From assembly GCA_963804645.1 (NCBI GenBank), contig CAWDRG010000017.1, positions 416,001 through 480,000 on the forward strand: 64,000 bases of DNA, in the 5' to 3' direction. Position 1 is the first letter of the stretch. Each line of letters opens with the position of its first letter. A program made the position numbers and the translations under genes. This DNA is from an uncultured Bacillota bacterium (GTDB lineage: Bacteria > Sysuimicrobiota > Sysuimicrobiia > Sysuimicrobiales > Segetimicrobiaceae). This document shows, piece by piece, positions 8,373-54,486 of this stretch. The notes below the pieces were generated by a model. The model was not told the origin of the DNA, did no database searches, and saw nothing but the letters and a program-made list of their open reading frames with translations.

Positions 8373-8384
8373 GCTCCACGGGTC

Positions 8385-20197: not shown

Positions 20198-20201
20198 CGA
20201 C

Positions 20202-20457: not shown

Positions 20458-20484
20458 CGGCCACCGTGCTGCGGCACCATCCGC

Positions 20485-20519
20485 GTGTACTTGTCCCCAT
20501 GCATGGGGTAACGTACACT
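20485..20519 (+). promoter_or_regulatory. Sigma70-type promoter with a palindromic operator in the spacer
   Basis: TTGTCC-N17-TACACT; perfect palindrome CCCCATGCATGGGG (20495-20508) flanked by GTGTAC/GTACAC. Confidence 0.55.
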
Positions 20520-20557
20520 GGAGTGGAGTCTCAGAACGACACCGGGCCGGAGTTGCG

Positions 20558-21304: not shown

Positions 21305-21390
21305 GACGGTCGGGCCGACACGCGGCCCGGGGTCAACGACGCACCGGATGGTCGCTCCCGATCGATAGGACACCGCATACCCGCGCGGGC

Positions 21391-22275: not shown

Positions 22276-22308
22276 TCGGGCGCCTCCGTCGGCGCGGCGG
22301 GGTCGGCG

Positions 22309-23322: not shown

Positions 23323-23430
23323 CCCATCCTCCTTGATCCGGTGGCCCGCGCGGGCGTACGGTCCTTCCGCGGTATTCGGCGTCGTGACGGACGGATCATG
23401 CGGCGGGGTGTCCCGGACGCGGCGTGCGGC

Positions 23431-26392: not shown

Positions 26393-26414
26393 GGTGCTCC
26401 TCGAGAACTGAGCT

Positions 26415-26436
26415 ATGTTATCGAACGTGTGTTCGG
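26415..26436 (-). promoter_or_regulatory. LexA (Cheo-type) box abutting the uvrA -10
   Basis: CGAAC-GTGT-GTTCG at 26422-26435, next to the minus-strand -10 TAACAT (26420-26415) and a GGAG RBS. Confidence 0.8.
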
Positions 26437-26488
26437 TGATATGCGGGCATGCACCTTCTCACGTGGTAAACGCCCGGACGCGCCCTCG

Positions 26489-28660
26489 TTATTGCCGTGA
26501 TCCCTTCCCGACCCCGCCGGGACGCCGCCGGCCCCGGCCGCCGGAGGACGACGGCGACCCGCGACGGCCCCGCCGCGAGCCGGGCCGCGCGAAAAATGGC
26601 TCCCCGAGACCCTTGCGCAGCTCTTGCAGCTGGTCGCGCAGCGACGCCGCTTTCTCGAACTGCAACTCCGCGGCGGCCTTCTGCATCTCCCGTTCAAGCA
26701 CCTCGATCGTCCGCTCAAGCTCCCCGGGGCTCAACATCAGCAGGCGCGCGATGTCCCACGGCACCTGCTTGTGCTGTTCGGCGAGCCCGACCAGCTCCTT
26801 CGCGGTCAGCACGGCCCCGTCGCCGTCCTCCGCCGGGTACGGAGCGGGCTCCTCCGCAACTTCCAGCAGCTCGATCATGTCGCGGATCGGTTTCACGATT
26901 GTCGTCGGGGTGATCGCGTGCTCCTCGTTGTACTGGAGCTGAATCACCCGGCGCCGATTGGTCTCCGAGATCGCCTTCCGCATCGACTCGGTGACCTCGT
27001 CGGCGTAGAGGATCACGCGGCCGCCGACGTTGCGGGCCGCCCGCCCCATCGTCTGGATCAGGCTCGTCTCGGACCGCAGATATCCTTCCTTGTCGGCGTC
27101 GAGAATCGCCACGAGCGACACCTCGGGCAGATCCAACCCCTCGCGCAGCAGGTTGATCCCGACCAGGACGTCGTACGTGCCGAGCCGCAGGTCCTTGAGG
27201 ATCTGGATCCGCTGCAGCGTCTCGACCTCGGCGTGCAGGTAGTGCACCTTCATCCCGAGCTCCTGCAGATAGTCCGACAGATCCTCGGCCATGCGCTTCG
27301 TCAGCGTGGTCACGAGCGTCCGCTCGCCTTTCTCGACCTGCCCCTTGATCTCGGCGATCAGATCGTCGACCTGGCCCTTCGCGGGACGGACGTCGACCTG
27401 CGGATCCACCAGACCGGTCGGCCGCACGATCTGCTCCACGACCTGCGCGCTGACCGACATCTCGTACGGACCCGGCGTCGCCGAGATGAACAGCGCCTGC
27501 GGCACCATGCGGTCGAACTCCGCGAAGGTGAGCGGGCGGTTGTCGTACGCCGACGGCAGCCGGAACCCAAAGTCGACGAGGTTCTTCTTGCGGCCCCGGT
27601 CGCCTTCGACCATCCCGCGTACTTGGGGGAGCGTCACGTGCGACTCGTCGACCACCACGAGAAAGTCCTTGGGAAAGTAGTCGAGCAGACATCCCGGCCG
27701 CTCGCCGGGCGCGCGCCCCGAGAGCGGGCGCGAGTAGTTCTCGATCCCGGGGCAGTAGCCGACCTCGCGCAGCATCTCGAGATCGTACTTCGTGCGAAAC
27801 TCGAGACGCTGGGCCTCGAGGAGCTTGCCCTGATCCTGGAACCACTGCAGACGCTCCCGCAGCTCCGCCTCGATCCGGCCGAGCCCGTCGCCGAGCTTCG
27901 CGGCCGTCGTCACCCAGTGCTTCGCGGGCCAGATCGCCACGGCCGGCTTGTCCGCGAGGAGCTCCCCGGTCAGCGGATCGACCTCGTGGATCCGCTCGAT
28001 CTCGTCATCGAACAGCTCGACGCGGACCGCGCGGTCCTCGTAGGCGGGGAAGATCTCGATGACGTCGCCGCGCACGCGAAATCGGCCGCGCGCGAAGTCG
28101 ATGTCGTTGCGCTCGTACTGCACGTCCACCAACCGCCGCAAGATCTCATCGCGAGACTTCCGCTCGCCGGTCTTGAGAAACAGCATGACGTCCTGATAAT
28201 CTTCCGGCGAGCCCAATCCGTAGATACACGACACGGACGCCACGACGATCACGTCGCGCCGCTCCATCAACGCCTTCGTCGACGCGTGCCGCAAGCGGTC
28301 GATCTCGTCGTTGATCGACGCGTCCTTCGCGATGTACAGGTCGTTCTGGGGGACGTACGCCTCGGGCTGGTAGAAGTCGTAGTAGGACACGAAGTAGCGG
28401 ACCGCGTTGTCCGGGAAAAACTGCCGGAACTCCCCGTACAGCTGCGCCGCGAGCGTCTTGTTGTGGGCGAGGACGAGCGTCGGGCGCTGAATTTGCGCGA
28501 TGACCTCGGAAACGGTCCGCGTCTTCCCGCTGCCCGTCACGCCGAGCAGCGTCTGAAATCGGTCGCCCCGCCGCACGCCGTCGACCAGCTTGACGATCGC
28601 CTGCGGCTGGTCGCCTGCGGGGGCCTGTTCCGTGACTAGACGAAACTGCGCGTCACTCAT
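26489..28660 (-). CDS. uvrB: Excinuclease ABC subunit B
   Basis: [42 protein letters not shown]-terminal UVR motif. Confidence 0.98.
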
Positions 28661-28675
28661 CACACAATTATAGCA
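28661..28675 (-). promoter_or_regulatory. Extended -10 promoter giving a leaderless uvrB mRNA
   Basis: TGcTATAAT-tgtgtg-ATG; no SD sequence. Confidence 0.7.
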
Positions 28676-33703: not shown

Positions 33704-34414
33704 TTAGATCGCGGGAGCGGGACGGATCCCGATCGGCCGGACGCGTGCGCGGGAGTGCTGCCGCTGCTCCGGCGCCTCGATAAACCCGCAAATCTCCTCG
33801 TAGATCTGCTGAATCGGACGTTCCGCGTTCGCTTGAAGCAGGCGGCGGTCCGCGCGGTAGTACTCGACCATGGGGCCCGTGAGCTCCCGGAACACGCCGA
33901 TGCGGTGGCGAATGGTGTCGGCATCGTCGTCTTTGCGCTGCGCCAGGGGCGCGCCGTCCACATCGCAGCGGCCGCCGGCGCGCGGGGGCTGGTACTCCAG
34001 GTGGTAGGTCATCCCGCATCGCGAGCAGACGCGGCGCCCGGCAAGCCGCGTCAGCAGGACGTCATCCCGGATCGTGAACAGCACCGCCGCGTCGAGGCGC
34101 CGGCCCGCGCTCGCGAGCGAGGCGTCCAGTACCCGTGCCTGCTCGAGCGTCCGGGGGTATCCGTCCAAGATAAATCCGTCGCCGCAGTCTGGCTCGGCCA
34201 GGCGCGCGCGAACGATCTCGTCGACCAGGGCGTCGGGCACGAGGTCGCCCCGGCGCATGTATTCGGACGCGCGCTCGCCGAGCCCGGTCGCGTCGCGGAC
34301 GGCCTCGCGGAGCATGTCGCCTGTACAGATGTGCGGCAACCCGTGTCGAGCATGAAACAGCCCGGCCTGCGTACCCTTCCCGGCTCCCGGCGGCCCCGCA
34401 AACACGAAGTTCAC
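33704..34414 (-). CDS. adk: Adenylate kinase (zinc-lid type)
   Basis: GPPGAGKGTQ, TGDMLR, FILDGYPR, CSRC..CDVD lid, QRKDD; GGAGG RBS before GTG 34414. Confidence 0.92.
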   Translation of the reverse strand: MNFVFAGPPGAGKGTQAGLFHARHGLPHICTGDMLREAVRDATGLGERASEYMRRGDLVPDALVDEIVRARLAEPDCGDGFILDGYPRTLEQARVLDASLASAGRRLDAAVLFTIRDDVLLTRLAGRRVCSRCGMTYHLEYQPPRAGGRCDVDGAPLAQRKDDDADTIRHRIGVFRELTGPMVEYYRADRRLLQANAERPIQQIYEEICGFIEAPEQRQHSRARVRPIGIRPAPAI

Positions 34415-34594
34415 GTCACGACCTCCCCGAACGTGGCGTTGCGCGTGCCTGCGATCGTGAAGGGAGCGAGGAGAGTGCGAATCCACGATCTTCACACCGC
34501 ATTAACGTATACCCAGTTGGGGGGCGTTTCGTAACGAATGTCACGCACGCGACCGCACGGCATCGGCGCCGCGTCCGACCGTCTCCCGGCCGTG

Positions 34595-35752
34595 CTACCT
34601 GACGAAAAGCTCTCGAGGAAATTCGGTCAGCGGCTCGCATCCCCCGGGGGTCACGAGGACGGTTTCGCTCACGCCGACGCAGCCGACCCCGTAGTCGCGG
34701 AGGGCGGGAGGCATGTGAAAGACCATGCCCGGCTCCAGGCTGGTCGCGTCCCCCTTCCGGAGGCTGATGATGTGCCCCTCGTTCCAACCGGGCGGAAAGG
34801 CAAATCCCGCGGAATAGCCAGTGCGCTTTCGGAACGACTCGTACACGCCCGCCTCGACCATCACGGTCTGACACGCGCGGTCGACATCTTCGGCGGCCGC
34901 CCCGGGCCGCATCGAGGCGATCGCACGTTCGAGTCCTTCTCGGCACAGGCCGAACATGCGGCGCGTGTCGGCAGTGGGCTCGCCCAGGCTGACCGCGCGC
35001 ATCAGCGGCGCGATGTACCGGCCGCAGCACGCCGTCATCTCGAGCAGCACGGTGTCGTGCGGCTCAAGACGCCGCCGCTCGAACGTGGTATGCGGAACGC
35101 CGGCGCGGTAGCCGGACGTCACGATCGGATCGATCGGAAAGTACTCGGATCCGGCCCGGACCATCGCCGCCATCGCCGCGGCCGCGACGTCGTTCTCGGT
35201 GGCGCCGACGGCGCAGGCGTCGATCGCCGCGCGCATGCCGAGGGCGGTCCACGCGGCCGCCTGCCGCATGCGCGCCACCTCGCGGTCGGATTTCACCCGG
35301 CGCAGCCGCTCGACCGCGCCCGAGCCATCCGCGAGGTCGAAGCCTGCGAGCAGCTGACCGAGGCGGCGGCGGTTCGCCGCGTGCATCGCGGGCGCCGTCT
35401 CCTCGAGGGCGACGCCGCGCCGGTTCGCCGCACGGCGCGTCACTTCGTCGGCCAGCCGCTCCAGGGGATCCTCGTGATCGTCGTAGGTGACCACTTCGGT
35501 CCCCGCGGCGTAGAGCGCGGCGAGGTACGACTCCAGATACCGGACGAACAAGGTGGGCGACCCGCGGCGCGGGACGAGCAGCACCTGGAACGTCCGGCCG
35601 GCATACGTCTGATACCCGGTCAGGTAGAACACGCTCTCTTGCGCGAAGGCGAGAAACAGGTCCACCCCTCGACGCTCCAGCTCGGCCTGCAGCCGAGCGA
35701 GGCGGCCGGCGAACTCCTCCGGCGGAAACACGGGCGTGTGTGGAATCTGCAT
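34595..35752 (-). CDS. M24-family hydrolase, ectoine hydrolase (DoeA/EutD)/creatinase-like
   Basis: YLTGY, KSDRE, VPH, LLEMTACCGRYIAPLMR, RTGYS, WNEG, MVFHMPP, SETV; lacks the D-D-H-E metal ligands of prolidases. Confidence 0.8.
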   Translation of the reverse strand: MQIPHTPVFPPEEFAGRLARLQAELERRGVDLFLAFAQESVFYLTGYQTYAGRTFQVLLVPRRGSPTLFVRYLESYLAALYAAGTEVVTYDDHEDPLERLADEVTRRAANRRGVALEETAPAMHAANRRRLGQLLAGFDLADGSGAVERLRRVKSDREVARMRQAAAWTALGMRAAIDACAVGATENDVAAAAMAAMVRAGSEYFPIDPIVTSGYRAGVPHTTFERRRLEPHDTVLLEMTACCGRYIAPLMRAVSLGEPTADTRRMFGLCREGLERAIASMRPGAAAEDVDRACQTVMVEAGVYESFRKRTGYSAGFAFPPGWNEGHIISLRKGDATSLEPGMVFHMPPALRDYGVGCVGVSETVLVTPGGCEPLTEFPRELFVR

Positions 35753-35795: not shown

Positions 35796-36650
35796 CTACT
35801 CCCGGGCCCCGGCGAGCGCGCCGCGCGGCCGCCACCGGAGCAGCCGCCGCTCCACCACGCCGAGGACGATGTCCATGACGACCACGATCAGCAGGAGCGC
35901 CACGATCGCCGCCATCGTCACGCTCACGTTGAGTTCGTTGGCGGCCTCGTTCACGAGATATCCGAGCCCGAGGTTCGCGGCGATGAACTCCCCGGTCACG
36001 GCCCCGACGAGCGCCTCCGGCACGGCGATCCGGAGCCCGGTCATCAGGTACGGCACGGTGCTCGGCAGCGCGATCTTCCAGACCACATCCGCCCGGCGAG
36101 CGCCCATCACGCGGACCACGTGGACGAGCTGCGGGCTCACCTGGTACAGCCCCGCCGCCATGTTCATGAAGACCACAAAGAACACGAACAGCGCCGCGAG
36201 CACGACCTTCGGCGCCAGCCCCAGGCCGAACCACATCACGAACAGCGGCGCGAGCGCGATCTTTGGGACCGAGTAGACCGCGATCAGAAACGGCCTGAGG
36301 ACGCGCTGGAGGGTCTCTTCAAACGCGACGACGAGCGCCACCGCGACGCCGAACACCGCCCCGATCGCGTAGCCGCTCAGGACCTCCGTGACGGTCTGCA
36401 CGAGGTTCGGCCACAGGCGGCCGGACACCACGAGCCCCCAGAACGCGCGCGCCACGCCGCCCGGATCACCGACGTACTGCCGCTCGCCGAACCGCCCGGC
36501 AGCCACCGCCCACCCGCCGAGCGCGAGGACCAGCACGAGGGCCCGGCCCACCGCAACCGCGGCACCCCACGCCACCTCGTGCCGCCGCGCCCGGCGCCAC
36601 ACCTCAAGGTGCAGGCGCTGCTCGCGCGACACCGGCGCCGGCCCGCTCAC
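35796..36650 (-). CDS. ABC permease (SsuC/TauC type)
   Basis: SVPKIALAPL..WFG, MGA, LPS, GEF..NLGLG. Confidence 0.9.
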   Translation of the reverse strand: MSGPAPVSREQRLHLEVWRRARRHEVAWGAAVAVGRALVLVLALGGWAVAAGRFGERQYVGDPGGVARAFWGLVVSGRLWPNLVQTVTEVLSGYAIGAVFGVAVALVVAFEETLQRVLRPFLIAVYSVPKIALAPLFVMWFGLGLAPKVVLAALFVFFVVFMNMAAGLYQVSPQLVHVVRVMGARRADVVWKIALPSTVPYLMTGLRIAVPEALVGAVTGEFIAANLGLGYLVNEAANELNVSVTMAAIVALLLIVVVMDIVLGVVERRLLRWRPRGALAGARE

Positions 36651-36663: not shown

Positions 36664-38382
36664 TCACTCGACGTGCTCCGCGGCGGACGCCGCCCGCACC
36701 GGCGGCGCGGAGAGCCGACGTTCCTCGTCGGGATCGCGCTCGATCGACCGCATCGAGACGCGGCCCCGCTCGTACAGCACCGTCCGGACCCACGCGGGAT
36801 CCTGCGCAGGGAAATCGTCCCGGTAGTGTGCCGCCCGGCTTTCGGTTCGCGCGAGCGCGCTCGCCGCGATGGCCGCGCCGACCTCGCACAGATCCGCGAG
36901 CTCGATCGCGGCGACCAGATCGCCGACCGTCTCCTGGGGCAGCGCGGCGGCCTCCGCCCGGATCTCGGCGAGGTCCCGCTGCGCGACGCGAAGGCCCTCG
37001 GCGGTCCGCACGATGCCGATGCCGAGCCACATGCGGTCCCGCAGGCGCGCCAGCAGGGCGTCCATCGCGGGCGACGCGTCGGTCGCCTCGCCGCGGACGG
37101 CCGCGATCCGGCGCGCCCACCGGTCGGCGGCGCGCTCGTCGATCCGCCCCGCGGGGCGCCCGCGCTCGCCGGCGGCCGCGATGCCGGCCCGATGCCCCAT
37201 CACCTGCGTCTCGGGCACCGCGTTGCTGTTGAGGCGGTTGCCGCCGTGGGTCCCGCCGGCGTTCTCGCCGGCCGCGTACAGGCCCGGCGTCGCGCTCAGG
37301 CCCGCATCGTCGGTGAGCACCCCGCCCATGAAAAAGTGCGCCTCCGGCGCAATCACGAGCGGGATTTCCCGGTAGTTGATGCCGCGCGGCTCGAGCCGTT
37401 CGATCACTTTCGTGTTCTCGAGGCGGAACTGCTCGTCGGAGACCTGGGAGACGTCGAGCAGCACCCCACCGTCCACGCTCAGGCCGGCGCGGATCTGGTC
37501 GAAGATGCCGCGCGCCGACACATCGCGGGTGGCGGTCTCTTTCTTGACCGGATCGTACGCCTCCATAAACCGCTCGCCGCGGCTGTTGTAGAGACGGGCG
37601 CCCGACACGAACGTCGACGGCTGGATCGGGACGCGGCTGTTCCGGAACGGCCGGATGAGGCGCCAGGGGTAGAACTGGATGAACTCCATGTCGCGCAGCG
37701 GCGCGCCGGCCCGGACGGCGAGCGCGTAGCCGCCGCCGGTCACGTCCACGGGGTTGCTCGTCACGCTGAACAAGCGGCCCGCGCCGCCCGCGGCGAGGAC
37801 GACGGCCCGCGCGCGGATCAGGCACCCCCCGATGCGGTCCCGCCGCACGCCGATCGCCCCAACCACGCGGCCGTCGTCGAGCAGCAGCTCGACGATCAGG
37901 GTGTTCTCGAGCGGGTGCACCCCGGAGGCGAGCGCGGCCTCGCGCAGCGGCAGGGTCATGTCGGTGCCGCGATAGTGAATCGGCGCGAGCACGCGCGGGT
38001 GCCGGTGATCCCCGCTCGGGGACAGATAGTACTGGCCGTCGCGCACCCGGAACTGGGCCCCGAGCGCCATCAACTCTTTGAGCCGCGCGGGCGCCTCGTC
38101 GGCGAGCGCCCGCACGAGCGGCCGCTCGTTCACCCACCCGCCGCCGGCGATGGTGTCGGCGTAGTGCTGCGCGGCATCGTCTTCGGGGTCGAACTCCGCG
38201 GACGCCGCCGCGTAGCCCCCGGTGGTGTTGGCGGACGAGCCGCTCTGGCCGAGCTTGCGCTTCACCGCGATAATCACGTCCGCGCCTGCCTGCCGCGCGC
38301 TGAGGGCGGCCCGGAGCGCGGCGAGCCCGCCGCCGACGATGAGGACGTCGGTCTCGAACGTCTCGAACGTCTCGAACGTCAC
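36664..38382 (-). CDS. FAD-dependent oxidoreductase, NadB/SdhA/FrdA flavoprotein family
   Basis: GGGLAA, AAGGAG, DMEFIQFYP, TRDV, AHFFMGG, YAAGE, HGGNRL, RTESRAAHYRDDFP. Confidence 0.88.
   Translation of the reverse strand: MTFETFETFETDVLIVGGGLAALRAALSARQAGADVIIAVKRKLGQSGSSANTTGGYAAASAEFDPEDDAAQHYADTIAGGGWVNERPLVRALADEAPARLKELMALGAQFRVRDGQYYLSPSGDHRHPRVLAPIHYRGTDMTLPLREAALASGVHPLENTLIVELLLDDGRVVGAIGVRRDRIGGCLIRARAVVLAAGGAGRLFSVTSNPVDVTGGGYALAVRAGAPLRDMEFIQFYPWRLIRPFRNSRVPIQPSTFVSGARLYNSRGERFMEAYDPVKKETATRDVSARGIFDQIRAGLSVDGGVLLDVSQVSDEQFRLENTKVIERLEPRGINYREIPLVIAPEAHFFMGGVLTDDAGLSATPGLYAAGENAGGTHGGNRLNSNAVPETQVMGHRAGIAAAGERGRPAGRIDERAADRWARRIAAVRGEATDASPAMDALLARLRDRMWLGIGIVRTAEGLRVAQRDLAEIRAEAAALPQETVGDLVAAIELADLCEVGAAIAASALARTESRAAHYRDDFPAQDPAWVRTVLYERGRVSMRSIERDPDEERRLSAPPVRAASAAEHVE
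38351..38380. repeat. 9-bp tandem repeat (GTCTCGAAC)x3.3 at the flavoprotein 5' end
   Basis: Encodes TFE-TFE-TFE-T. Confidence 0.85.
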
Positions 38383-38407: not shown

Positions 38408-39568
38408 TCACGGACGCTCGCCCACCACGTGCAGCACCCGCGGGAACTGCGTCAGGACGTCGCATCCCCCCTCCGTCACGAGCACCGTCTCGCTCCAGCC
38501 CAATCCGTAGCGGCGCGGCACGCGCAGCGCGGGCGGCATGTGAAACACCATCCCGGGGACGAGCGGCGTCGGGTCGTCGCGCCGCAGGCTGACGATGTGC
38601 CCTTCCCCCCAGTCCGGCGCGTAGCCGACCCCCACCGAATACCCGGTGCGCTTCCGGAAGTACGGCTCGTAGCCCGCGTCCTCGAGGACCGTCCGGCACG
38701 CCGCGTCGACGTCTCCGCTCGTCGCTCCGGGCCGGATCGCCGCGATCGCCGCGTCGAGCGACGCGATGATCGTCGCGGCCATCGCGTGCACCTCGCCGCG
38801 GACGGGCGCGATCGCGGCGCTGCGCATCAGCGGGCCGAAGTAGCGGCGCAGGCAGCCGCCCAGCTCGACGAGCACCGTATCCCCTGCCTCGAGCCGTCGG
38901 TGTCCGAACGTCAAATGGGCGACACCGGAGCGCCACCCCGACGTGACGATCGGGTCGCCCGCGAAGAAGTCGGACCCGGCGCCCAGCATCGCGCCGTAGG
39001 CCGCCGCGGCGACATCGTCCTCGGTCACCCCGGCCCGAATCGCGCCGAGGGCCGCGGCCATGCCCGCCTCGGTGACGCGGCACGCGCGCCGGATCAGCGC
39101 CACCTCGGACGCCGACTTGATCCGCCGCCCCGCCTCGACCATGCCGGACGCGTCGACGACGGCGCCGAGCCCGGCCCGCAGCCGGTCGACCGCCCCCGCG
39201 GCGACGAACCCGCCTTCCAGCTCGATGCCGACCGGGGCCCCGAGCCACCCGCGCCGGCGGAGCAGGCCGGTGAGCCGCTCGCCGGGGTCCTCCGCGTCGC
39301 CGAACGTCTCGAACTGATCGATCCAGCACGTCGTCTCGGCGACCGTGCGCTCCATCTCCCGGATCAACAGGACGACGGCGTCGGGACGCACGACCAAGGT
39401 CTGGAAGCTGCTGAACCCGATCGTCTCGTACCCGGTCAGGTAGCAGACGTTCTCGGGCGCGAACACCAGCAGGGTCTCGATCGCGCGGCGCGCCATGCGC
39501 GAGCGCAGCGCGTCCAATCTGGTCTGGTACTCGCCGACCGTGAAGGCCGGCACCCACTCACTCGTCAT
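38408..39568 (-). CDS. Second M24-family DoeA/creatinase-like hydrolase
   Basis: YLTGY, KSASE, VAH, LVELGGCLRRYFGPLMR, RTGYS, WGEG, MVFHMPP. Confidence 0.8.
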   Translation of the reverse strand: MTSEWVPAFTVGEYQTRLDALRSRMARRAIETLLVFAPENVCYLTGYETIGFSSFQTLVVRPDAVVLLIREMERTVAETTCWIDQFETFGDAEDPGERLTGLLRRRGWLGAPVGIELEGGFVAAGAVDRLRAGLGAVVDASGMVEAGRRIKSASEVALIRRACRVTEAGMAAALGAIRAGVTEDDVAAAAYGAMLGAGSDFFAGDPIVTSGWRSGVAHLTFGHRRLEAGDTVLVELGGCLRRYFGPLMRSAAIAPVRGEVHAMAATIIASLDAAIAAIRPGATSGDVDAACRTVLEDAGYEPYFRKRTGYSVGVGYAPDWGEGHIVSLRRDDPTPLVPGMVFHMPPALRVPRRYGLGWSETVLVTEGGCDVLTQFPRVLHVVGERP

Positions 39569-39590: not shown

Positions 39591-40466
39591 TCACCCGAGC
39601 GGGCTGCGCTCGCGGGGCGTCCAGCGCACCCACGCCCGCTCGACCGCCGACACCCCCGCGTTCATCAGGGTCACCACGATCAGCAGCCCGAAGATCGCGG
39701 CGAACACGTCGGCCGTCCGGTAGCGCGAACTCGCCGCGCTGATGAGGTAGCCGACACCGCGGTTGCTGCTGATGAACTCGCCGACGACGGCGCCGATCAG
39801 CGCGGCCGGCACGGTGATCCGGAGCGCGACGACGATGAACGGCGTCGCGCTCGGCAGCACGACCTTCCGAAAGACCGCGACCGGGCCGGCGCCCATCACC
39901 CGCACGACCTGGACCAGCCCGGGCGGCGCGGTCGCGAGGCCCGCGAGCGTGTTGAAGAACACGATGAAAAACACGAACACCGCGGCGAGCAGGATCTTCG
40001 GCAGGAGGCCGATGCCGAACCACAGGATCATGAGCGGCGCGAGCGCGATCTTGGGCGTCGCGTACGCGAGCAGGAGCAGCGGGCGCAGGACCGGCTCGCC
40101 ACCCGGGATCAGCCACGTGACGACCGCGGCCAGCAGGCCCGTGGACGCGCCCAGCGCGTATCCCGCCAGGGTCTCGGTGAGCGTGTACCGCAGATTGAAC
40201 CACAGGGTGCCGTCCCGGGCGATGCGGCCAAACGCCGAGGCGACGCTGACGGGATCGCTCAAAAACAGGTGGTCGACGAGCCGCCCCGAGGCGCCCCACC
40301 ACGCGGCGAGCAGCGCCGCGAGCAGCAGCACCTGCCAGGTCGCGACCGCGGCCGTCAGCCTCCGGTCCCGCCGGACGGCGTCGGCCGCCTCGCGCGCGAG
40401 AATCGCCTGTTCGCGCGGGTCGGCGCGGTCCGGGGCCGCGGGGCCCAGCGCCCGGCCGTTACTCAC
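39591..40466 (-). CDS. ABC permease (SsuC/TauC type)
   Basis: ATPKIALAPL..WFG, MGA, GEFISSNRGVG; GGAGG RBS before GTG 40466. Confidence 0.9.
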   Translation of the reverse strand: MSNGRALGPAAPDRADPREQAILAREAADAVRRDRRLTAAVATWQVLLLAALLAAWWGASGRLVDHLFLSDPVSVASAFGRIARDGTLWFNLRYTLTETLAGYALGASTGLLAAVVTWLIPGGEPVLRPLLLLAYATPKIALAPLMILWFGIGLLPKILLAAVFVFFIVFFNTLAGLATAPPGLVQVVRVMGAGPVAVFRKVVLPSATPFIVVALRITVPAALIGAVVGEFISSNRGVGYLISAASSRYRTADVFAAIFGLLIVVTLMNAGVSAVERAWVRWTPRERSPLG

Positions 40467-41337
40467 CGTCCGCCTCCCGCCCGCTGGCGATCTCGGCGCG
40501 CAGATCCGCCCAGATGGCGTCGTAGACCGGGGCAAACCCCGGGGCTTCGTGGATGTGAAAGACGTCCCGCGGCCGGGGAATCGCGACCTCGCGGACCTCC
40601 TTGATCGTCCCCGGGGCGCGCGTGAAGATGCCGATGCGGTCCGACAGCGCGATCGCCTCGACCAGATCGTGCGTCACGAAGACGACTGTGCGCCCGCTGC
40701 CCTGCCACAACCGCAGCAGCTCGTCCTGCAGCACGAGGCGCGTCTGTGCATCGAGCGGCCCGAACGGCTCGTCCATCAGGATCACGTTGACGCTGTCGTC
40801 GACGAGCGTGCGGACGATCGACACCCGCTTGCGCATGCCCCCGGACAGCTCGTGGGGATAGTGGTGTTCGAAGCCCCGCAGGCCGACCCGGTCGAGATAG
40901 GCGAGCGCCCGCGCCGTCCGCTCGGCGCGCCCGACGCCCTTGAGCTCGAGCGCGATCTCGACGTTCCCGAGCGTCGTGCGCCACGGCAGCAGGTTGTCGT
41001 CCTGCGTGATGTACCCGCCGCGGGTGTTGACGCCGCGAATCGGCTGCCCGTCCTGCAGCACCGCCCCGTCCGTCGGCGCCGTCAGGCCCGCGAACATGTT
41101 CAGCACGGTCGACTTGCCGCACCCCGACGGCCCGATCAGCGTCAGGAACTCGCCCCGCCGCACGGTCAGGTTCACGGCGCGCACCGCCGTCATCGCCCGG
41201 CGGCTGCGTCGGGTGCGCGAGACGAACACCTTGTAGACGTCGCGGGCCTCCAGGGCGACCGGCCCATCCGCCGACACCGCGCGCGCCTGTGGTCCTACCG
41301 TCGCCGCCGAAGGCTCCTCAGCGGCGCGGAGCCCCAT
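40459..41337 (-). CDS. ABC ATP-binding protein (SsuB/TauB type)
   Basis: GPSGCGKST, LLPWRT, LSGGMRKR, MDEPFG, VTHD. Confidence 0.93.
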   Translation of the reverse strand: MGLRAAEEPSAATVGPQARAVSADGPVALEARDVYKVFVSRTRRSRRAMTAVRAVNLTVRRGEFLTLIGPSGCGKSTVLNMFAGLTAPTDGAVLQDGQPIRGVNTRGGYITQDDNLLPWRTTLGNVEIALELKGVGRAERTARALAYLDRVGLRGFEHHYPHELSGGMRKRVSIVRTLVDDSVNVILMDEPFGPLDAQTRLVLQDELLRLWQGSGRTVVFVTHDLVEAIALSDRIGIFTRAPGTIKEVREVAIPRPRDVFHIHEAPGFAPVYDAIWADLRAEIASGREADGE

Positions 41338-42220
41338 CGAGCCGCTCGCGCAGAAGACGCATGATGACCTGCCACTCGTTGTACCCGGTCCGGCGCGGCG
41401 CGGTGGCGGCCTGCCCGCGGGCCCAGATGACCTTCCGGCCGAGCTGCTCCGCCGCGGCGAAGTCGACGCTGCCCGGAGGCGAGCACAGGTCGATGATCAC
41501 GACGTCGTCGGCCGTGCGGGCGAGCAGTTCGCGCGTCAGCACCAACCCGGATGAGGAGCTGACGATCAGCGGAAACCGGTCGATCGTCCCGGGAAGCTCC
41601 GACAGCGGGAGCGCGGTCATCCCCATCGCCCACGCGCGCGCGAGCTGGGAGGGATTGCGGGCCGCGAGCGTCACCCGGGCCTGCAGCCCGAGAAACGCCT
41701 GGGCGACGCTGAGACCGACGCGGCCGAGCCCGAGACAGAGCATCGGCAGGCCGAGGATCGTCTCCTCGGTGTTCTCGATCGCCACCTTCACCGCGCCCTC
41801 GGCGGTCGGCACGGCGTGCAGAATCGCGAGCGGATCGTCGTCCCCGTATCCGACCGGAGTCACCGGGGTGCCCTTCGCCCACGCTTCGATCTGCGGGTTC
41901 GCCCGCCCCATGAACATCAAGGCGCCCGGGGCGGCGCCGCGCAGCACTTCGGTCGTGGTAAACAGTTTCTCCTTTGCGAACGGGGCATACAGGCTGTGGT
42001 CCGTGCCGAGTCCGGGGATCGGGGCCGAGATCAACCTGGCGCCCGCGACGGCCTGCGCCAGCGAGGGCGACGCGGGCGCACCCGCCGCCTGGTCGGCCCC
42101 GGGCGCGGTCCCGTAGTGCTGCACCGACGCGCCCGACGCGCGCGCCTGGCGCATGTGCTCGAGCGCCCGCCGGTCGCCCCCGACGACCGCGACCGTCCAC
42201 CCCGACAGATCCACCGCCAT
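41318..42220 (-). CDS. Dipicolinate synthase subunit A (DpaA/SpoVFA)-like NAD-binding protein
   Basis: AVVGGDRR, PTAEG, TEETILG, LGLGRVG, AARN..LAR, IDLCSPPGSVDF, APRRTG; colinear with DpaA over the full length. Confidence 0.82.
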   Translation of the reverse strand: MAVDLSGWTVAVVGGDRRALEHMRQARASGASVQHYGTAPGADQAAGAPASPSLAQAVAGARLISAPIPGLGTDHSLYAPFAKEKLFTTTEVLRGAAPGALMFMGRANPQIEAWAKGTPVTPVGYGDDDPLAILHAVPTAEGAVKVAIENTEETILGLPMLCLGLGRVGLSVAQAFLGLQARVTLAARNPSQLARAWAMGMTALPLSELPGTIDRFPLIVSSSSGLVLTRELLARTADDVVIIDLCSPPGSVDFAAAEQLGRKVIWARGQAATAPRRTGYNEWQVIMRLLRERLDGAPRR

Positions 42221-42292: not shown

Positions 42293-43321
42293 CTACTTGA
42301 CGAAGCTGTTGGTCCACAGGACGCCCTCGGCGGTCGACGCCGCGACGGGCTGCCCGATCGTCTTGAAGATGTCGAGGTACCGCTGGACGCCCGCCTGCGA
42401 GAATCTCCCGTCGGGACTGATCGCCGGGAGGGTTGCGTCGAGTCCGACCGCGAGGCTGGCGGCCGGGGTATCGGGGAAGTACTTCTGTCCGAGAATCTGC
42501 AGCGCCTCGGTTTTGTTCGCGCGAATCCACGCCGTGGCCGCGGTCACCGAACGGGCGAACGCGGTCAGCGCCGGCCCGTTCTGCCGCGCGTACGCGGCCG
42601 AGGTGAAGAACCCGTCGTAGGTCGTGTTCGTGAATTCCGGCACGTCCCCCGCCGTGTCGCGGATGATGATCTGGCCCACGCCCTCCTGCTCCAGCGTCTG
42701 CGGGAGCGGCGGCGAGAGCAGGAACGCGTCGATCCGGCCGGCCCGCAGCGCGGCCGCCAGCCCGGCGACCCCGCCGACCTGCACCAGATTCGCGTCACGA
42801 TCGGGGTTGAGACCCGCTTTGATCAGGAAGTACCGCGCAAACACGTCCGTCGGCGCGCCGGGTGCCGTGATTCCGATGTTCAAGCCCTTGAGCGCCGCGT
42901 ACCGCCTCGGCAGCGACGAGAAGCGGCTGACGCCGGTCTTCTGGATGACGCTGTTTCGAACGATGAGGTCGAGCGTCACGCGCGTGACCAGGTTGTAGAA
43001 CAAGATCAGCTGCTTCCCCTGTGCCTGCACGTTGGCGATGCCCAGCGGGTCGAGATCGGACAGCTGGGCGTCGCCCGACAGCACCGTCGCCGGCCCGAGC
43101 GCTCCGCTGTTGATCTCCTGGAAGCTAAAATCGACCCCGTTTTGGGCGAAGAAGCCCTTCTCCTGCGCGATGAAAATCGGCGCGATGTACAGGACCCGAA
43201 ACCCCGTCTGCTTGATCTTGAATCGGGGCGCCTGCGCCAGACCGGTCGCGGGCGCGAAGGCCACCGACAGCAGCACCAGCAGCGCGAGTACCGTCCGGAT
43301 CGTTCGGCTCGAGGCTCGCAT
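42293..43321 (-). CDS. ABC substrate-binding protein (SsuA/NMT1 type)
   Basis: Signal peptide, YIAPIFIAQEKGFF, LKGLNIGIT, AALRAGRIDA; GAGGAGG RBS. Confidence 0.9.
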   Translation of the reverse strand: MRASSRTIRTVLALLVLLSVAFAPATGLAQAPRFKIKQTGFRVLYIAPIFIAQEKGFFAQNGVDFSFQEINSGALGPATVLSGDAQLSDLDPLGIANVQAQGKQLILFYNLVTRVTLDLIVRNSVIQKTGVSRFSSLPRRYAALKGLNIGITAPGAPTDVFARYFLIKAGLNPDRDANLVQVGGVAGLAAALRAGRIDAFLLSPPLPQTLEQEGVGQIIIRDTAGDVPEFTNTTYDGFFTSAAYARQNGPALTAFARSVTAATAWIRANKTEALQILGQKYFPDTPAASLAVGLDATLPAISPDGRFSQAGVQRYLDIFKTIGQPVAASTAEGVLWTNSFVK

Positions 43322-43451: not shown

Positions 43452-44276
43452 CTACTCGGGAAGGTCCTCGGTCGGAGTCGAGATTGCCCGGTACGCATCG
43501 GGGCGCCGGTCTCGAAACAGCGGGAATCGCTGGCGGGCTCGGATCACGTCCTGCCGGTCGATCACCGCGGTGATGATCTGCTCTTCGGTGCCGCTCGCCT
43601 GCACCAGGATCTTCCCGTCCGGGCCGATCACCATGCTCTTGCCGGACATCCGCCACCCGCCCTCCTGGCCGACGTGGTTGCACGCGGCCAGAAACACGCC
43701 GTTCTCCAATGCCCGGGTCGTGAGAAAGTTCTCCCACGGATCGCCGATCGGCGTCGCGTACGGGGCGAGAATGAGCTCCGCCCCATTCAGCGCGAGGCAC
43801 CGGCACGATTCGGGGAAGAGATTGTCGTAGCACGTCGACACGCCGGCCCGCCACTCGCCGATGCGGAACGTCGGGAACGACGACCCGCCCCGGAAGTAGA
43901 TCTTCTCGAGGCTGAGCAGCGCCGCCGGATGTACCTTGCGGTACTTGCCCGCCACCGCGCCCTCCGGGTCAATCAACATCGCGGTGTCGTAGTAGAGACC
44001 CGGCGCGGCCATCTCGAAGATGGTCGACAGGATCCACAGGCGGTGGCGGCGCGCCAGCGCCTTGATGCGCGTTTGCGTGACGCCGTCGTCGGGCTCCGCG
44101 TAGTCCATGTACTTCGCGTCCCGGTATTGCGGGAAGTACTCGTGGTTGAAAAACTCCGGCAGCACGATGAGCTCCGCCCCGTCGGCGGCGGCGTGATCGA
44201 CGAACGCGGCGGCACGCTCGACGTTCGCGTCCCGGGCGGCCCTCTGGCTGGTCATCTGCACGAGCGCGATCCGCAT
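43452..44276 (-). CDS. Carbon-nitrogen hydrolase (nitrilase superfamily)
   Basis: E-K-C triad: VLPEFF, YRKVH, TCYD..FPE. Confidence 0.92.
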   Translation of the reverse strand: MRIALVQMTSQRAARDANVERAAAFVDHAAADGAELIVLPEFFNHEYFPQYRDAKYMDYAEPDDGVTQTRIKALARRHRLWILSTIFEMAAPGLYYDTAMLIDPEGAVAGKYRKVHPAALLSLEKIYFRGGSSFPTFRIGEWRAGVSTCYDNLFPESCRCLALNGAELILAPYATPIGDPWENFLTTRALENGVFLAACNHVGQEGGWRMSGKSMVIGPDGKILVQASGTEEQIITAVIDRQDVIRARQRFPLFRDRRPDAYRAISTPTEDLPE

Positions 44277-48904: not shown

Positions 48905-49195
48905 TCACCGATCGTGGTGGCGCTCCTCGATCAGCACCGTTAGCGCGCGGCCGCGCCGGTCCTTGGGACGTGGACGGTCCCAAAACTCCCGGGACAGGGC
49001 GCGCTCGGCTGGCCGTGCCAATCCCGCCCGACATAGGAACGCCACGCGGGCTTCGTGCCGGGCTGGCACGCCGACGGGGCAGAGACGGGCCACCGGCACG
49101 TTGCGGTCTGTCACGATCGTCTCCTCGCCCGCCTTGGCCGCGTCCACGTACTCGCTCAAACGGGCCTTCCGCGCGGCGATCGATGCGCGCCTCAC
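48905..49195 (-). CDS. Phd/YefM-family antitoxin, orphan and possibly degenerate
   Basis: SI...KARLSEYV..AKAGEETIVTDRNVPVARL N-terminal domain, C-terminal LIEER; no toxin gene downstream. Confidence 0.7.
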   Translation of the reverse strand: MRRASIAARKARLSEYVDAAKAGEETIVTDRNVPVARLCPVGVPARHEARVAFLCRAGLARPAERALSREFWDRPRPKDRRGRALTVLIEERHHDR

Positions 49196-49283: not shown

Positions 49284-50744
49284 TCACCCGCCGCCTGCGC
49301 CGATGCGTTCCCGGAGCAGCCGATTGACGACCGCCGGGTTCGCCCGTCCGCGCGTCTGCTTCATCACTTGCCCGACGAGGAACTGCACCGCCCGGTCCTT
49401 GCCGGCACGCAGGTCCCCGACGGGTCCCGGGTGGTCCGCGATCACCTGGTCCACCAGCCGCAGGAGCTCCGCCTCGTCGCTGATCTGCACGAGCCCGCGC
49501 GCCTGCACGATCTCTTCGGCGCTCTTCCCGCTCTTGAGCATTTCCTCCAGCACTTCCTTGGCCGACGGCCCGTTCAGCGTCCCCCGTTCGAGCAGGGCCA
49601 GGAGCCCGGCCAGGGCGGTCGGTGTCAGCGCCACCCCGTCGATCTCGACGCCCTGGGCGTTGAGATAGGCGGCGAGGTCGCCCACGATCCAGTTCGCGGC
49701 GATCTTGGGGTGCGGAAACCGCCGCACGGTCTCCTCAAAAAACTCGGCCATCGGGCGAGTCTCCACCAAGAGACCCGCGTCGTGCTCCGGGAGGCCGTAC
49801 GCCTCGACGTACCGGCGGCGGCGGGCATCCGGCATCTCCGGCAGGTCCGTGCGCACGCGAGCGATCCAGGAGTCGTCGACCTGCACCGGCAGGAGGTCGG
49901 GCTCGGGGAAATAGCGGTAGTCGTGCGCCTCCTCTTTCTCCCGGGACGCGAACGTGATCCCGCGGTCCTCGTCCCAGTGCCGCGTCTGCTGCACCACCGC
50001 CTCCCCGCGCGCCAGCAGGTCCCGCTGGCGCGCCTCTTCCGTGCGCAGCGCCCGCTCGACCGCGCGCAGCGAGTTCATGTTCTTGATCTCCGTGCGCGTC
50101 CCGTACGGCTCGCCGGGTCGGCGGAGCGACAGGTTGGCGTCGCAGCGGAGCGTCCCTTCCTCCATCCGCCCCGTCGTCACGCCGGCGTACTGTAAGATGG
50201 TGCGCAGGCGCGTCAGGAAGTCCCTCGCCTCTTCGGGCGAGCGCAGATCGGGATCGGTCACGACCTCCATCAGCGGGGTGCCGCTGCGGTTGTAGTCCAC
50301 GAGGCTGTGCCCCACGGCGTGCACGAGCTTGCCGGTATCCTCCTCGAGGTGCACGCGGCGGATGCCGACCCGGCGTGGTCTGCCGCCGAGCGCGAGTTCG
50401 AGCGCACCGTGGGTCGCGAGCGGCGGGTGCCCCGCGTACTCGTACTGCGAAATCTGGTAGTTCTTCGGGATGTCGGGATAGTAGTAGTTCTTGCGGTGGA
50501 ACTGGCTCTCGGGATGCACCCGGCAGCCGAGGACGACCGCCGTCCGGAGTCCGAGGTCGACGGCACGCCGGTTCAGGACCGGCAGCGACCCGGGCAGCCC
50601 GAGGCACACCGGGCACGTCAGCGTGTTCGGCGGCGCGCCGAACGCGACGGCGCAGCCGCAGAACATCTTGCTCGCGGTGCTCAGTTGGACGTGCACTTCG
50701 AGCCCGATCACCGTTTCGTACACGGCGACGCCGGAGGGGCTCAT
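49284..50744 (-). CDS. gatB: Asp/Glu-tRNA amidotransferase subunit B
   Basis: [42 protein letters not shown]. Confidence 0.97.
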
Positions 50745-52236
50745 GCGGGGAGACTCCCGCCGGCCGTCGAGGCCAGCGGCGGCCGGCGCGCGTGGAACTC
50801 GGTCGCCTGCTCGAGCGCGTACGCGACGTCGAGCACCGTGGCCTCGTCGAACGCGCGGCCCGCGATCTGCAGGCCGACCGGGAGCCCGCCCGCGAATCCG
50901 CAGGGCACCGACACCCCGGGCAGGCCCGCGAGGTTTAGGGGGACCGTGAACACATCGGCCAGGTACATCTGCAGGGGGTCCTCGACGCGCTCGCCGAGGC
51001 GAAACGCCGGCGTCGGAGCCACCGGCCCTACGAGCACGTCCGCGGTCCCGAGCGCGGCCTCAAACTCGCGCCGGACGAGCGCGCGCACCCGCTGCGCCCG
51101 GACGTAGAACGCGTCGTAGTAGCCGGCGGAGAGCGCGTAGGTGCCGAGCATGATGCGCCGCTTGACCTCCGCGCCGAACCCCTCGCGGCGGGTCCGCGCG
51201 TACAGGGTCATCAGGTCGTCCGCGTGCGCGGTGCGGTGCCCGTACAGCACCCCGGCGTACCGGGCGAGGTTGCTGCTCGCCTCCGCGGGCGCGACGATGT
51301 AGTACGCTGGGAGCGCGTAGGACGCGTGCGGCAGCGAGACCTCGACGCGCGTGGCGCCCAGGCGCTCGAGCGTCCGGATCGCCTCCCGCACCGCGCTCGC
51401 CACCTCCGGATCGACGCCGTCCTCCAAGAACTCCCGGACCACCCCGAGGCGCAGCCCCCGGACGCGTCCCGCGAGCCGGTCCACGTAGGGCGGCACGTCC
51501 ATCTCCGCGGACGTAGAGTCGAGGGGATCCCGGCCGGCGACGACCTGCAGCAGCAGCGCGGCGTCGCGCACAGTCCGCGCAAACGGGCCGATCTGGTCGA
51601 GCGACGACGCGAACGCGATCAAGCCGTACCGGGAGACGCGCCCGTACGTCGGCTTGAGGCCGACCACTCCGCAGAAGGACGCGGGTTCGCGGATGCTCCC
51701 GCCGGTATCGCTGCCGAGCGCGAGCGTCGCCTCTCCCGCCGCCACCGCCGCCGCGGACCCGCCGCTGCTCCCCCCGGCACCCGGTCGAGGTCCCACGGAT
51801 TGCGGGTCGGGCCGAACGCGGAGTTCTCGGTGCTGCTGCCCATCGCGAACTCGTCGCAGTTGGTCTTGCCGAGCACGATGGCGCCCGCCTCGCGCAGCAG
51901 CCGCACGACCGTCGCGTCGTAGGGCGGGCGGAAGCCGTCGAGCATACGCGAGCCCGCGGTCGTCGGGATCCCGCGCGTGCACAGGTTGTCCTTGAGCGCC
52001 ACGGGGATGCCGGCGAGCACCGGCGCGCCGTCGCGCCCGGCGATCGGGTCCCAGCGCGCGGCCTCGCGGAGCGCGGCCTCGGCATCCAGGTGCAGGTAGG
52101 CGTGCACCCGGGGCTCCACGGCCGCGATCCGGTCGAGCACGGCGCGGACGGCATCCGTGGGCCGGGCCTCGCCGCGGCGGTAGCGGGCGCGGAGGTCCGA
52201 GGCGGACAGGTCGGCGAGCGAGGCCTCCGGCGCCAT
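50741..52236 (-). CDS. gatA: Asp/Glu-tRNA amidotransferase subunit A (one base missing in the G run at 51770-51775)
   Basis: [24 protein letters not shown] in one frame; [16 protein letters not shown] in another. Length is 3n+2. Confidence 0.95.
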
Positions 52237-52240
52237 GCGG

Positions 52241-52709: not shown

Positions 52710-54486
52710 CTACTGCTTGTAAATCGTGTAGTAGTACTGCCCCGGGAAGATCGGATTGTAGTACCATCCGTGCACCCACGACCGCATCGCGACGAACGTC
52801 GTGGGCTGCACCAGGAACAGGTACGGCAGATCGTTGTACGCGATCATCGAGATCTGCTTGTACAGCACCTTCCGCTTCGCGGGATCCGCGGTCCCGACCG
52901 CCTGCGCGATCAGCGCGTCGGCCTGGGGATTGCGGTAGCCGCCGCGCGCGGGGAAGTACCCGTCCGAGGCCAGGAACGGCTGTGCGAAGTCGTGCGGGTC
53001 CGGGTAGTCGGCGAACCACCCGAGAAACACCATCGGCACCTGGTGGGCGAACGTGATCTGGTTCAGCGCGGCCGACGGCAGCGGCCGGAAGCTGACCTGG
53101 AACTTGGGGTTGAGTGCCGCGAGGGTGTCACGCACGATCTCCACGCCGACCTGGCGTGCTGCGTTGCCGGCCGTGTACGGAATCGTGAACTTAAACCCGG
53201 TGTCCCAGAGCTTCCCGCCGAGCGCTTCCTTGAACTCCGCGGCCGCCTTCTCGGGATCATGGCTGTACGTCGGGACCGTCGGATCGTAGCCCAGCAGGCC
53301 CTGCACGATCGGCCCGTGTGCGAGGATCCCGTGGCCGGAATACGCGGAGCTCAGGTTCTGGCCGTAGTCGAACGCGTACGCGAACCCGCGCCGCACGTGG
53401 ATGTCGGCGAAGAAATCGGTGGGGATCCCCTGCCCGTCGAGCTTGCCGCTGCCGACGTCCGGGTTGCCGTTCGTGTTGATCTGATAGTTGAACACCACGA
53501 CCTGCACGGCGATCTGCGGCAGGCCGTCTTGGATCACGACGCCGGGCAGGCTCTTGAGCTGGGACTCCTGGTTCGGCGATGGCGAGGACCAGGTCGGCGT
53601 CCCCCTGCTGCAGCTGCAGGCTCCGGGTCGTAAACTCGGGGACCGACCGGTCGATGACGCGCTGAAGCGCGGCCGGCTTCCGCCAGTAGTGATCGTTCCG
53701 GACGAGGACCACTTGATTGTTCTGCTGGTCCCACTGATCCAGCATGAACGGTCCGGTGCCGTCCATGTGGGTCGTCTGGTAGCGGTCCCCGGTCTTCGGG
53801 TTGTTGTACTGCTGCCAGGTCCCGGCACCGCCGTCCCAGTCCCCGTGTGAGGCGGCCCACTTCCGCGGCATTACCACGCCCCACTGCGCGACGATCGACA
53901 GAAACGGCGCGAACGGCTGCTTGAGGCGGAAGACGACCGAGTCCCCGTCCGCGGACACCGCGCGGGCGACCTGGTCGAACGTCACCTGGATCTTCCCCTG
54001 GCTGTCCCGGGTGCTCCCGACGCCGAGCAGCGGGCTGAGCAGCAGCCACGCGGGGCCGCCGGACTGGTCCTGCAGCAGGAATCGCCGGAGCGAGTAGACG
54101 ACATCGTCGACCGTCATCACCGACCCGTCGTGGAACCGCACGCCCGTGCGGATCGGGAACCGGTAGGTGAGCCCGTCCTTGCTGATGAGGCCGTTTTGGA
54201 CCGTCGGCACCTGGGTGGCGAGCATCGGCGAGAACTGATCGATCGAGGAGCCGCTGTAGATGATCAGCGACTCGTACACGTTCGGCCAGATCACCTCGGC
54301 CGAGTAGATGTCATACCCGAGCGCGGGGTCGAGCGTCACCACGTTCCCGAACTGCAGCTCGACGAGCGTACCGGGGTTCTTGACGGGCTCGCCGGCGCCC
54401 CGGCCGGGGAGCGCGGCGAGCATCGCGACCAGCACCGCGGCGGTGACCGCCGCCGCGCCACGAACGGCCCACGAGGCGCTACGCAT
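52710..54486 (-). CDS. Peptide ABC substrate-binding protein (family 5), frameshift at ~53580
   Basis: TLDPA, GTGPF in one frame; VRRGFAYAFD, WFADYPDP in the next. Close paralog of 56586-58370. Confidence 0.88.

Follow-up and report, generated by a model that had tools for sequence, protein, structure and literature searches.

A DpaA-like protein set apart from dipicolinate synthase A in a conserved, uncharacterised transporter operon

Why should a relative of the A subunit of dipicolinate (DPA) synthase be encoded in the middle of an operon for an ABC importer? The question is raised by a stretch of 64,000 nucleotides from an uncultured Bacillota bacterium of the Segetimicrobiaceae (Sysuimicrobiota; assembly GCA_963804645.1, contig CAWDRG010000017.1, positions 416,001 to 480,000), hereafter the window, which has a G+C content of about 70% and in which the gene at 41318..42220 (-) encodes a 300-residue protein, P0001, resembling DpaA (SpoVFA, also called DpsA). 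A sequence-only reading had proposed that P0001 belongs to a non-sporulation branch of the DpaA family, acting as an NAD(P)-dependent oxidoreductase, possibly in catabolism and perhaps even in the scavenging of spore-derived DPA. We find that P0001 is a true relative of DpaA with the full-length DpaA fold, that it is not the A subunit of DPA synthase but belongs to a separate, widespread and uncharacterised DpaA-like clade, and that the order of genes around it recurs in distantly related hosts.

DpaA fold and separation from dipicolinate synthase A

The open reading frame (ORF) of P0001 starts with ATG, its G+C content by codon position (0.72, 0.54 and 0.91) follows the pattern of a real gene, and residues 9-121 of its product match the Pfam family DpaA_N (E 4e-18; 66.1 bits against a cut-off of 29.2). 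The colinearity with DpaA over its full length, which the sequence-only reading had described, is borne out by PDB sequence searches, in which P0001 matches the DpaA of Bacillus halodurans (3d4o, query residues 5-292 against chain residues 3-291) at E 1.3e-32 and that of B. subtilis (2rir) at E 3e-29, and by an AlphaFold model (20 homologues as input, pLDDT 84), whose best Foldseek superposition is again 3d4o (E 8e-23, TM 0.78/0.81); the next folds, at about 1e-11, are S-adenosylhomocysteine hydrolases, alanine dehydrogenases and transhydrogenase domain I. P0001 thus has the two-domain fold of DpaA at an identity of 28-30%. All four motifs named in that reading are present, GGDxR as GGDRR (residues 14-18), PTxEG as PTAEG (138-142), LGLGR within LGLGRVG (163-169; GxGRxG in DpaA) and DLxSxPG as DLCSPPG (244-250), with Asp253 also in common, and the two substitutions that it had described can be seen in the PDB alignments, where AIYNSIPTAEG/VEG of Bacillus DpaA becomes AILHAVPTAEG (YNSIPT to LHAVPT) and PGLPGIVAPK becomes ARGQ-AATAPR. 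Because the Rossmann GxGxxG and the DpaA-type motifs are kept, the proposed NAD(P)-dependent oxidoreductase is a fair inference.

Although it matches DpaA_N, P0001 falls below the cut-offs of both equivalog models for the genuine enzyme, scoring 211.5 bits with NCBIfam NF006162 (DpsA; cut-off 261) and 183.9 bits with TIGR02853 (cut-off 319.65). An exhaustive family search returned 1745 representatives at E <=1e-10, and NF006162 was tested on the 133 full-length representatives among the best 150, of which 92 pass and 41 score below the cut-off. In a maximum-likelihood tree of 146 rows (midpoint rooting only, with P0128 and P0164 excluded as partial-length matches), P0001 lies outside the DpsA-level rows, in a clade of 43 rows (SH-aLRT 99) that contains none of the 92 and is made up of P0001, nine close homologues, five proteins from fetched loci and 28 sub-cut-off representatives; the 11 remaining sub-cut-off rows are dispersed among the DpsA rows.

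The alignment columns kept in the clade and in DpsA alike are GGDxR, P67, AEG, T154, GxG, R188, D244, PG and D253. P0001 itself shares with true DpsA the residues G14, G15, D16, R18, E141, G164, G166, R188, D244, P249, G250 and D253, and therefore the same kind of chemistry and a dinucleotide site are likely. It differs from DpsA at two positions that are invariant in all 92 DpsA rows, having Ser221 for Asn and Cys246 for Ala, and in residues specific to the clade, namely Asp128 (100%), Pro69 and Pro248.

A genome scan with one genome per species gave 26 loci, of which L001-L021 carry members of this clade; counts over these loci come from tblastn with the window proteins and Pfam on the remaining ORFs, and L023-L026, with partial matches (33-42% over about 120-180 residues; a 121-residue ORF only in L025), were not used as DpaA examples. 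A tblastn search with B. velezensis DpaB found dpaB in none of the 21 related loci, and in the positive controls it adjoins dpaA, both in L022 and in B. velezensis (L028), where the order is dpaA-dpaB-asd-dapG. Public PGAP-style records call close relatives of P0001 'dipicolinate synthase subunit DpsA', a name which, taken with the full-length DpaA fold, would make P0001 a genuine but divergent A subunit whose dpaB lies elsewhere in the genome. That reading is scarcely credible: it is opposed by the scores below both equivalog cut-offs, by the separate clade, by the replacement of the invariant Asn and Ala, by the lack of dpaB in the related loci, and by the recurrence of the transporter-operon setting in at least five phyla that are mostly not endospore formers. 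The name is probably a mislabelling by homology, and the separate non-sporulation branch of the sequence-only reading stands. At least 120 clusters (at 90% identity) share at least 59% identity with P0001; the matches to P0001 in a protein atlas were generic DpaA-family clusters only, and a literature search found no paper on the clade, on this combination of genes or on homologues of DpaA in organisms other than spore formers.

The transporter operon and its conservation across hosts

The operon runs on the (-) strand in the order CN-hydrolase, substrate-binding protein, DpaA-like protein, ATPase, permease, M24 hydrolase, FAD flavoprotein, permease and second M24 hydrolase, with intergenic spacings of 13 to 130 nucleotides or overlaps. 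The carbon-nitrogen hydrolase gene (CN-hydrolase; 43452..44276, CN_hydrolase 8e-58) is a possible first gene, 130 nucleotides upstream of the gene for an NMT1/SsuA-type periplasmic binding protein of a NitT/TauT-family ABC importer (42293..43321, NMT1_2 3.8e-25), the best PDB match of which is a 'putative exported protein' (3qsl, E 1e-22), with a weak match to the pyrimidine-binding protein ThiY (3ix1, E 7e-4). The DpaA-like gene follows and overlaps by 20 nucleotides the gene for a taurine/nitrate/SaoA-like ABC ATPase (40459..41337, ABC_tran 5.4e-29; best NCBIfam matches all below their cut-offs), so that it stands between binding protein and ATPase as first described. Downstream lie the first permease (39591..40535, BPD_transp_1 1.8e-23), a hydrolase resembling DoeA (ectoine hydrolase) and creatinase (M24a; 38408..39568, Peptidase_M24 and Creatinase_N), a FAD flavoprotein of the SdhA/FrdA/NadB/TfrA family that stands alone and has an altered active site (36664..38382, FAD_binding_2 2.4e-67 and Succ_DH_flav_C), the second permease (35796..36650, BPD_transp_1 6.5e-33) and a second DoeA/creatinase-like paralogue (M24b; 34595..35752, Peptidase_M24 2e-40 and Creatinase_N). 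A scan of the operon for promoters and terminators gave no promoter-like site and only weak, intragenic terminator-like matches.

The flanks are housekeeping genes, DUF881 and dnaE on one side and adk, polA and coaE on the other. The adenylate kinase gene, adk (33704-34495 (-); NF001380 255.2 bits, cut-off 251; kinase match from about residue 29), lies between the operon and polA/coaE; the usual place of adk is beside ribosomal-protein genes and secY.

The sequence-only reading had also noted the absence of dpaB, asd, dapG and dapA from the surroundings, which sets P0001 apart from the dpaA of the B. velezensis control. None of the 52 window ORFs put through Pfam (13 plus 39, a crude, GC3-based pick of ORFs of at least 80 residues) matched the Flavoprotein/DpaB, DHDPS, Semialdehyde_dh or AA_kinase families, and tblastn with B. 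velezensis DpaB and Asd and with a DHDPS-family protein found no match in the window; for dapG, which was not a tblastn query, the absence is that of the AA_kinase family from the same 52 ORFs.

The exact order of binding protein, DpaA-like protein and ATPase is found in the window and in 10 of the 21 related loci (L001, L003-L008 and L010-L012), and one side of this order is visible on four short contigs. In 14 of the 21 there is a gene for the flavoprotein, five of the seven loci without it being contigs that end within about 3 kb, and in 16 a gene for an M24 hydrolase; truncated contigs make up most of the loci in which either is lacking. The hosts include Alphaproteobacteria (Pseudolabrys, Xanthobacteraceae, Hyphomicrobiales and Roseomonas), Armatimonadetes, Solirubrobacterales, Ca. 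Geohabitans (Ca. Sysuimicrobiota), Robertmurraya, Paenibacillus and unclassified metagenome-assembled genomes (MAGs), and some homologues of P0001 are labelled Vicinamibacteria. Other recurrent neighbours are genes for aspartate-aminotransferase-like, small FAA-hydrolase-family, DHDPS-family, Ldh_2 and ornithine-cyclodeaminase/mu-crystallin-family proteins and for GntR or LysR regulators; the Ldh_2, ornithine-cyclodeaminase/mu-crystallin and DHDPS-family proteins among them belong to families that act on cyclic imino acids in known pathways. Such conservation of a transporter together with hydrolases argues for a role in catabolism, as the sequence-only reading had supposed.

Partner enzymes and the candidate pathway

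The partner enzymes of the operon give the best indication of what might be degraded. M24a is closest to ectoine hydrolase DoeA (PDB 6twk, E 1.3e-43), and at the positions aligned to the metal ligands of prolidase it has Glu, Pro, Tyr, Pro and, as the only one kept, the last Glu, which is the pattern of DoeA; because of this pattern M24a is read as a DoeA/creatinase-type hydrolase of amidine-like carbons. Xaa-Pro peptidases were considered for the M24 proteins and ruled out, as four of the five metal ligands of prolidase have given way to other residues in the manner of DoeA.

Three unrelated types of carbamoylase-type (ureido/carbamoyl) amidohydrolase alternate in the cluster. The CN-hydrolase of the window has N-carbamoylputrescine amidase as its best NCBIfam match (166 bits against a cut-off of 410); an M20 protein in L004 scores above the cut-off of the hydantoinase/carbamoylase family (273 against 204), with tblastn matches of 67-72% identity in L003, L005, L006, L008 and L010; and an isochorismatase in L016, closest to RutB/BiuH (biuret amidohydrolase), has matches of 28-72% identity in L002, L007 and L019.

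These hydrolases bear directly on the proposal that spore-derived DPA is scavenged, with the DpaA-like protein and the flavoprotein reversing the DPA synthase reaction and a DHDPS-family enzyme splitting the product. The homology of P0001 to DpaA, the soil habitat of the hosts and the DHDPS-family genes of Bacillota and Alphaproteobacteria, which immediately precede the DpaA-like gene in L020 and L021 and are neighbours of the operon in five loci (L004, L005, L006, L008 and L010), speak in its favour. Yet the window has no DHDPS-family gene, the reduction of an aromatic pyridine by NAD(P)H is energetically unfavourable by established chemistry, and the conserved DoeA-like M24 and carbamoylase-type hydrolases would have no role on a ring with one nitrogen. 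The only published DPA catabolic route found is, as printed, oxygenolytic, beginning with the monooxygenase DipD, which gives 3-hydroxy-DPA, and the dip cluster of Alcaligenes faecalis JQ135 is described there as holding DipD and the GntR/FadR-type regulator DipR (PMC11472048). No monooxygenase family is among the Pfam matches of the operon in a general Pfam scan, for which no Dip protein served as a query. The scavenging of DPA was thus not borne out, and we consider it very unlikely.

The flavoprotein shares its FAD, capping and C-terminal domains with L-aspartate oxidase (NadB), fumarate reductase (FrdA) and thiol:fumarate reductase (TfrA), but all NCBIfam equivalog models score below their cut-offs and the active site differs: on alignment to FrdA the covalent-FAD His is lacking, the T-E-G-x-R stretch of the capping domain (Thr-Glu...Arg) is missing, and His232 is replaced by Tyr238, within a FYPWR motif that is invariant in 10 of 10 orthologues. 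Arg287, His355 and Arg390 of FrdA, which hold and protonate a carboxylate substrate, are kept as R286, H349 and R383. By its residues the flavoprotein seems to form a separate, uncharacterised subfamily, and a plasmid search with it gave no match at E 1e-60. In one locus (L015, Roseomonas sp. AR75, 7709-10888) an Old-Yellow-Enzyme-family FMN oxidoreductase (OYE) and an NMT1 binding protein adjoin the DpaA-like gene, and the OYE ene-reductase stands in place of the FAD flavoprotein, which fits a step of C=C reduction. Two AcrB-type efflux pump genes lie downstream in the same locus.

Among the Pfam and NCBIfam matches of the operon there is no iron-sulfur or NAD-binding partner for the flavoprotein, and this leaves room for a reading in which the DpaA-like protein acts on no substrate itself and binds NAD(P)H on behalf of the flavoprotein, much as in the DpaA-DpaB pair, both being components of one NAD(P)H-dependent reductase or dehydrogenase of the heterocycle. 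The window and 14 of the 21 loci have both genes, and in L016 and L019 the flavoprotein gene comes directly after the DpaA-like one; transhydrogenase domain I, which passes a hydride across a protein interface, is among the nearest folds after DpaA; and true DpaA works with a flavoprotein subunit, consistent with the adjacency of dpaA and dpaB observed in L028. On the other hand, the flavoprotein gene is lacking in L002 and L015, although these loci extend 10 kb to either side of the DpaA-like gene, the OYE enzyme of L015 takes NAD(P)H directly, and the invariance of the DpaA-type substrate motifs GGDxR and PTAEG would be unexpected in a mere electron donor. We hold this reading to be unlikely, though deserving of some weight, and give a similarly low standing to its extension, in which the DpaA-like protein and the flavoprotein would be an undescribed two-component NAD(P)H-dependent reductase that saturates an imported N-heterocycle, with a pyrimidine-carboxylate or a cyclic guanidine carboxylate as candidates, for the DoeA-like hydrolases and the carbamoylase; such a reductase may have been recruited from the sporulation enzyme.

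Two known kinds of pathway offer a comparison. Ectoine and hydroxyectoine clusters comprise the hydrolase DoeA/EutD, the deacetylase DoeB/EutE, an aminotransferase and EutC, of the ornithine cyclodeaminase family, according to a 2026 survey in the main text of which the word 'dipicolinate' does not occur (PMC13188858). Their logic of a dedicated importer, a metal-free M24 ring-opening hydrolase and a deacylase is shared by the operon, and some of the loci also have an aminotransferase and an ornithine-cyclodeaminase-family enzyme. They differ in the importer, which is Ehu or TRAP there and of NitT/TauT type here, in their MocR-type regulator and EutE-type deacetylase family, neither of which is among the Pfam matches of the window (the latter being Pfam AstE_AspA), and in the DpaA-like enzyme and the NadB/FrdA-like flavoprotein, which the window operon adds. 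In hydantoinase or dihydropyrimidinase-carbamoylase routes, hydrolysis of the ring gives an N-carbamoyl amino acid, which is then decarbamoylated. Carbamoylase-type enzymes, here of three unrelated folds, are common to both, and the presence of the flavoprotein, or of the OYE, makes it plausible that a C=C bond is reduced here; the candidate for ring opening, however, is an M24 protein and not a hydantoinase of the amidohydrolase superfamily, extra amidohydrolases being found in L012 only, and no dihydropyrimidine dehydrogenase is present.

On these comparisons we favour, with a confidence somewhat short of even, the reading that the operon serves to take up and degrade an N-heterocyclic carboxylate and that P0001 is its NAD(P)(H)-dependent oxidoreductase; the likeliest substrate class would be cyclic amidines, guanidines or ureides resembling ectoine, dihydropyrimidines or hydantoins. 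The NitT/TauT-type ABC system would import the carboxylate, and the DpaA-like enzyme and the NadB/FrdA-like flavoprotein would alter the oxidation state of its ring, the flavoprotein (or OYE) acting on a C=C or C-C bond and the DpaA-like enzyme, by analogy with the cyclic imine substrate of DpaA, on a C=N or C-N bond adjacent to the carboxylate. Opening of the ring or cleavage of the amidino carbon would then fall to the metal-free DoeA/creatinase-like M24 hydrolases, a carbamoylase-type amidohydrolase, in the window the CN-hydrolase, would take off a carbamoyl or acyl group, and the amino acid so released would enter central metabolism. The cofactor of P0001, the order of the steps, the bond attacked and the substrate class are what we infer from this set of genes.

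Several points weigh against this pathway. The substrate class and the activity are predictions from the genes, and the preference for NADP(H) is suggested by a single residue, Arg188, at the end of the second Rossmann strand. The M24 proteins lie far below the DoeA/EutD cut-offs (M24a 272.8 and M24b 253.2 bits with Ectoine_DoeA_2, NF038259, cut-off 575; 189.2 and 166 bits with TIGR02993, cut-off 613), so that ring opening is ascribed to them by analogy. The CN-hydrolase is placed in the operon by its position only and may be unrelated to it, as tblastn found a copy in none of the 21 related loci and it occurs in the window only. The accessory genes vary by lineage, and different members of the operon family may handle different compounds; a dihydrodipicolinate-like substrate would also agree with the DHDPS-family genes that, in Bacillota, adjoin the DpaA-like gene. 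Finally, in the unrooted tree the 43-row clade is placed amid DpsA lineages, which makes it possible, as far as the tree goes, that the clade arose from sporulation DpaA and that it has retained a DPA-related chemistry.

The last alternative concerns the acyclic product of ring opening, on which P0001 might act as an amino-acid or opine-type dehydrogenase resembling alanine dehydrogenase, for example in the oxidative deamination of a diamino or dicarboxylic amino acid. L-alanine dehydrogenases are among its fold neighbours; aminotransferase genes are present in L002, L005, L006, L020 and L021 and absent from the window operon, where some enzyme must remove the amino group; and on an Aminobacter plasmid a DpaA-like gene overlaps an octopine/nopaline dehydrogenase-family gene, near a D-amino-acid dehydrogenase gene. 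Alanine dehydrogenase is nevertheless only remotely similar (about 15% identity; E ~1e-11, where DpaA gives E 8e-23), and the NadB-like flavoprotein could deaminate by itself, so that we regard this role as distinctly improbable.

Wider setting of the DpaA fold and further features of the window

A plasmid search with P0001 returned only distant paralogues (<=34% identity) and true Bacillota dpaA. On plasmid pAM01 of Aminobacter sp. MSH1 (L027, 8919-14105) the distant DpaA-like gene (33% identity), which overlaps the octopine/nopaline-dehydrogenase-family gene, is followed by genes for an amidohydrolase, a 4-oxalocrotonate-tautomerase-like protein and an isochorismatase, with an M24-family (Xaa-Pro peptidase) protein, the D-amino-acid dehydrogenase and malate synthase G encoded upstream. 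More generally, on Aminobacter plasmids the DpaA-like gene (33-34% identity) is found among amidohydrolase, isochorismatase, amidase and M24-family genes, and a distant DpaA-like gene is carried by Shinella and Phyllobacterium plasmids too. The pAM01 locus places the DpaA fold in a second catabolic context, unlike the first, and from the setting on Aminobacter plasmids the recruitment of this fold into the catabolism of nitrogen compounds may be broader than the clade of P0001.

Elsewhere in the window, a family-5 solute-binding protein ORF at 52710-53870 (-) covers only positions 174-365 of the 368-position Pfam profile and could represent an Opp/Dpp binding protein that is truncated or degenerate; the frame upstream (53534-54310 (-)) has no Pfam match, and an intact Opp/Dpp binding protein is encoded at 56586-58370. 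A truncation of gatA was considered and ruled out, the frame being open from 50741 to 52240 with an ATG. Between dnaE and gatB there is a Phd/YefM-type antitoxin-like ORF (48905-49195 (-)), beside which no toxin gene was called. The window also encodes a signalling protein of 985 residues with PAS, GAF, HD (HD_5), GAF and GGDEF domains (4994-7951 (-)), an F420H2-dependent quinone reductase-family protein (4120-4749), and, within about 11 kb (17394-28663), uvrC, uvrA and uvrB together with a D-2-hydroxyacid dehydrogenase and an EamA transporter.

The clade of P0001 is a new functional variant of a known family, situated in a conserved, uncharacterised operon. For genome annotation this means that the label 'dipicolinate synthase subunit DpsA' can falsely imply sporulation or DPA synthesis in MAGs of Proteobacteria, Armatimonadota, Acidobacteriota and Actinomycetota, and for the biology of soil communities that the operon represents an uncharacterised uptake-and-degradation pathway common in soil metagenomes. 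If the DpaA-like protein and the flavoprotein did form a two-component reductase, this would be a new reductive route of N-heterocycle catabolism, spread by gene transfer across soil bacteria of at least five phyla. Knowledge of the substrate would assign four subfamilies at once, the DpaA-like proteins, the altered flavoproteins, the DoeA-like M24 hydrolases and the NMT1-type binding proteins, and could also illuminate the poorly understood chemistry of DpaA itself.

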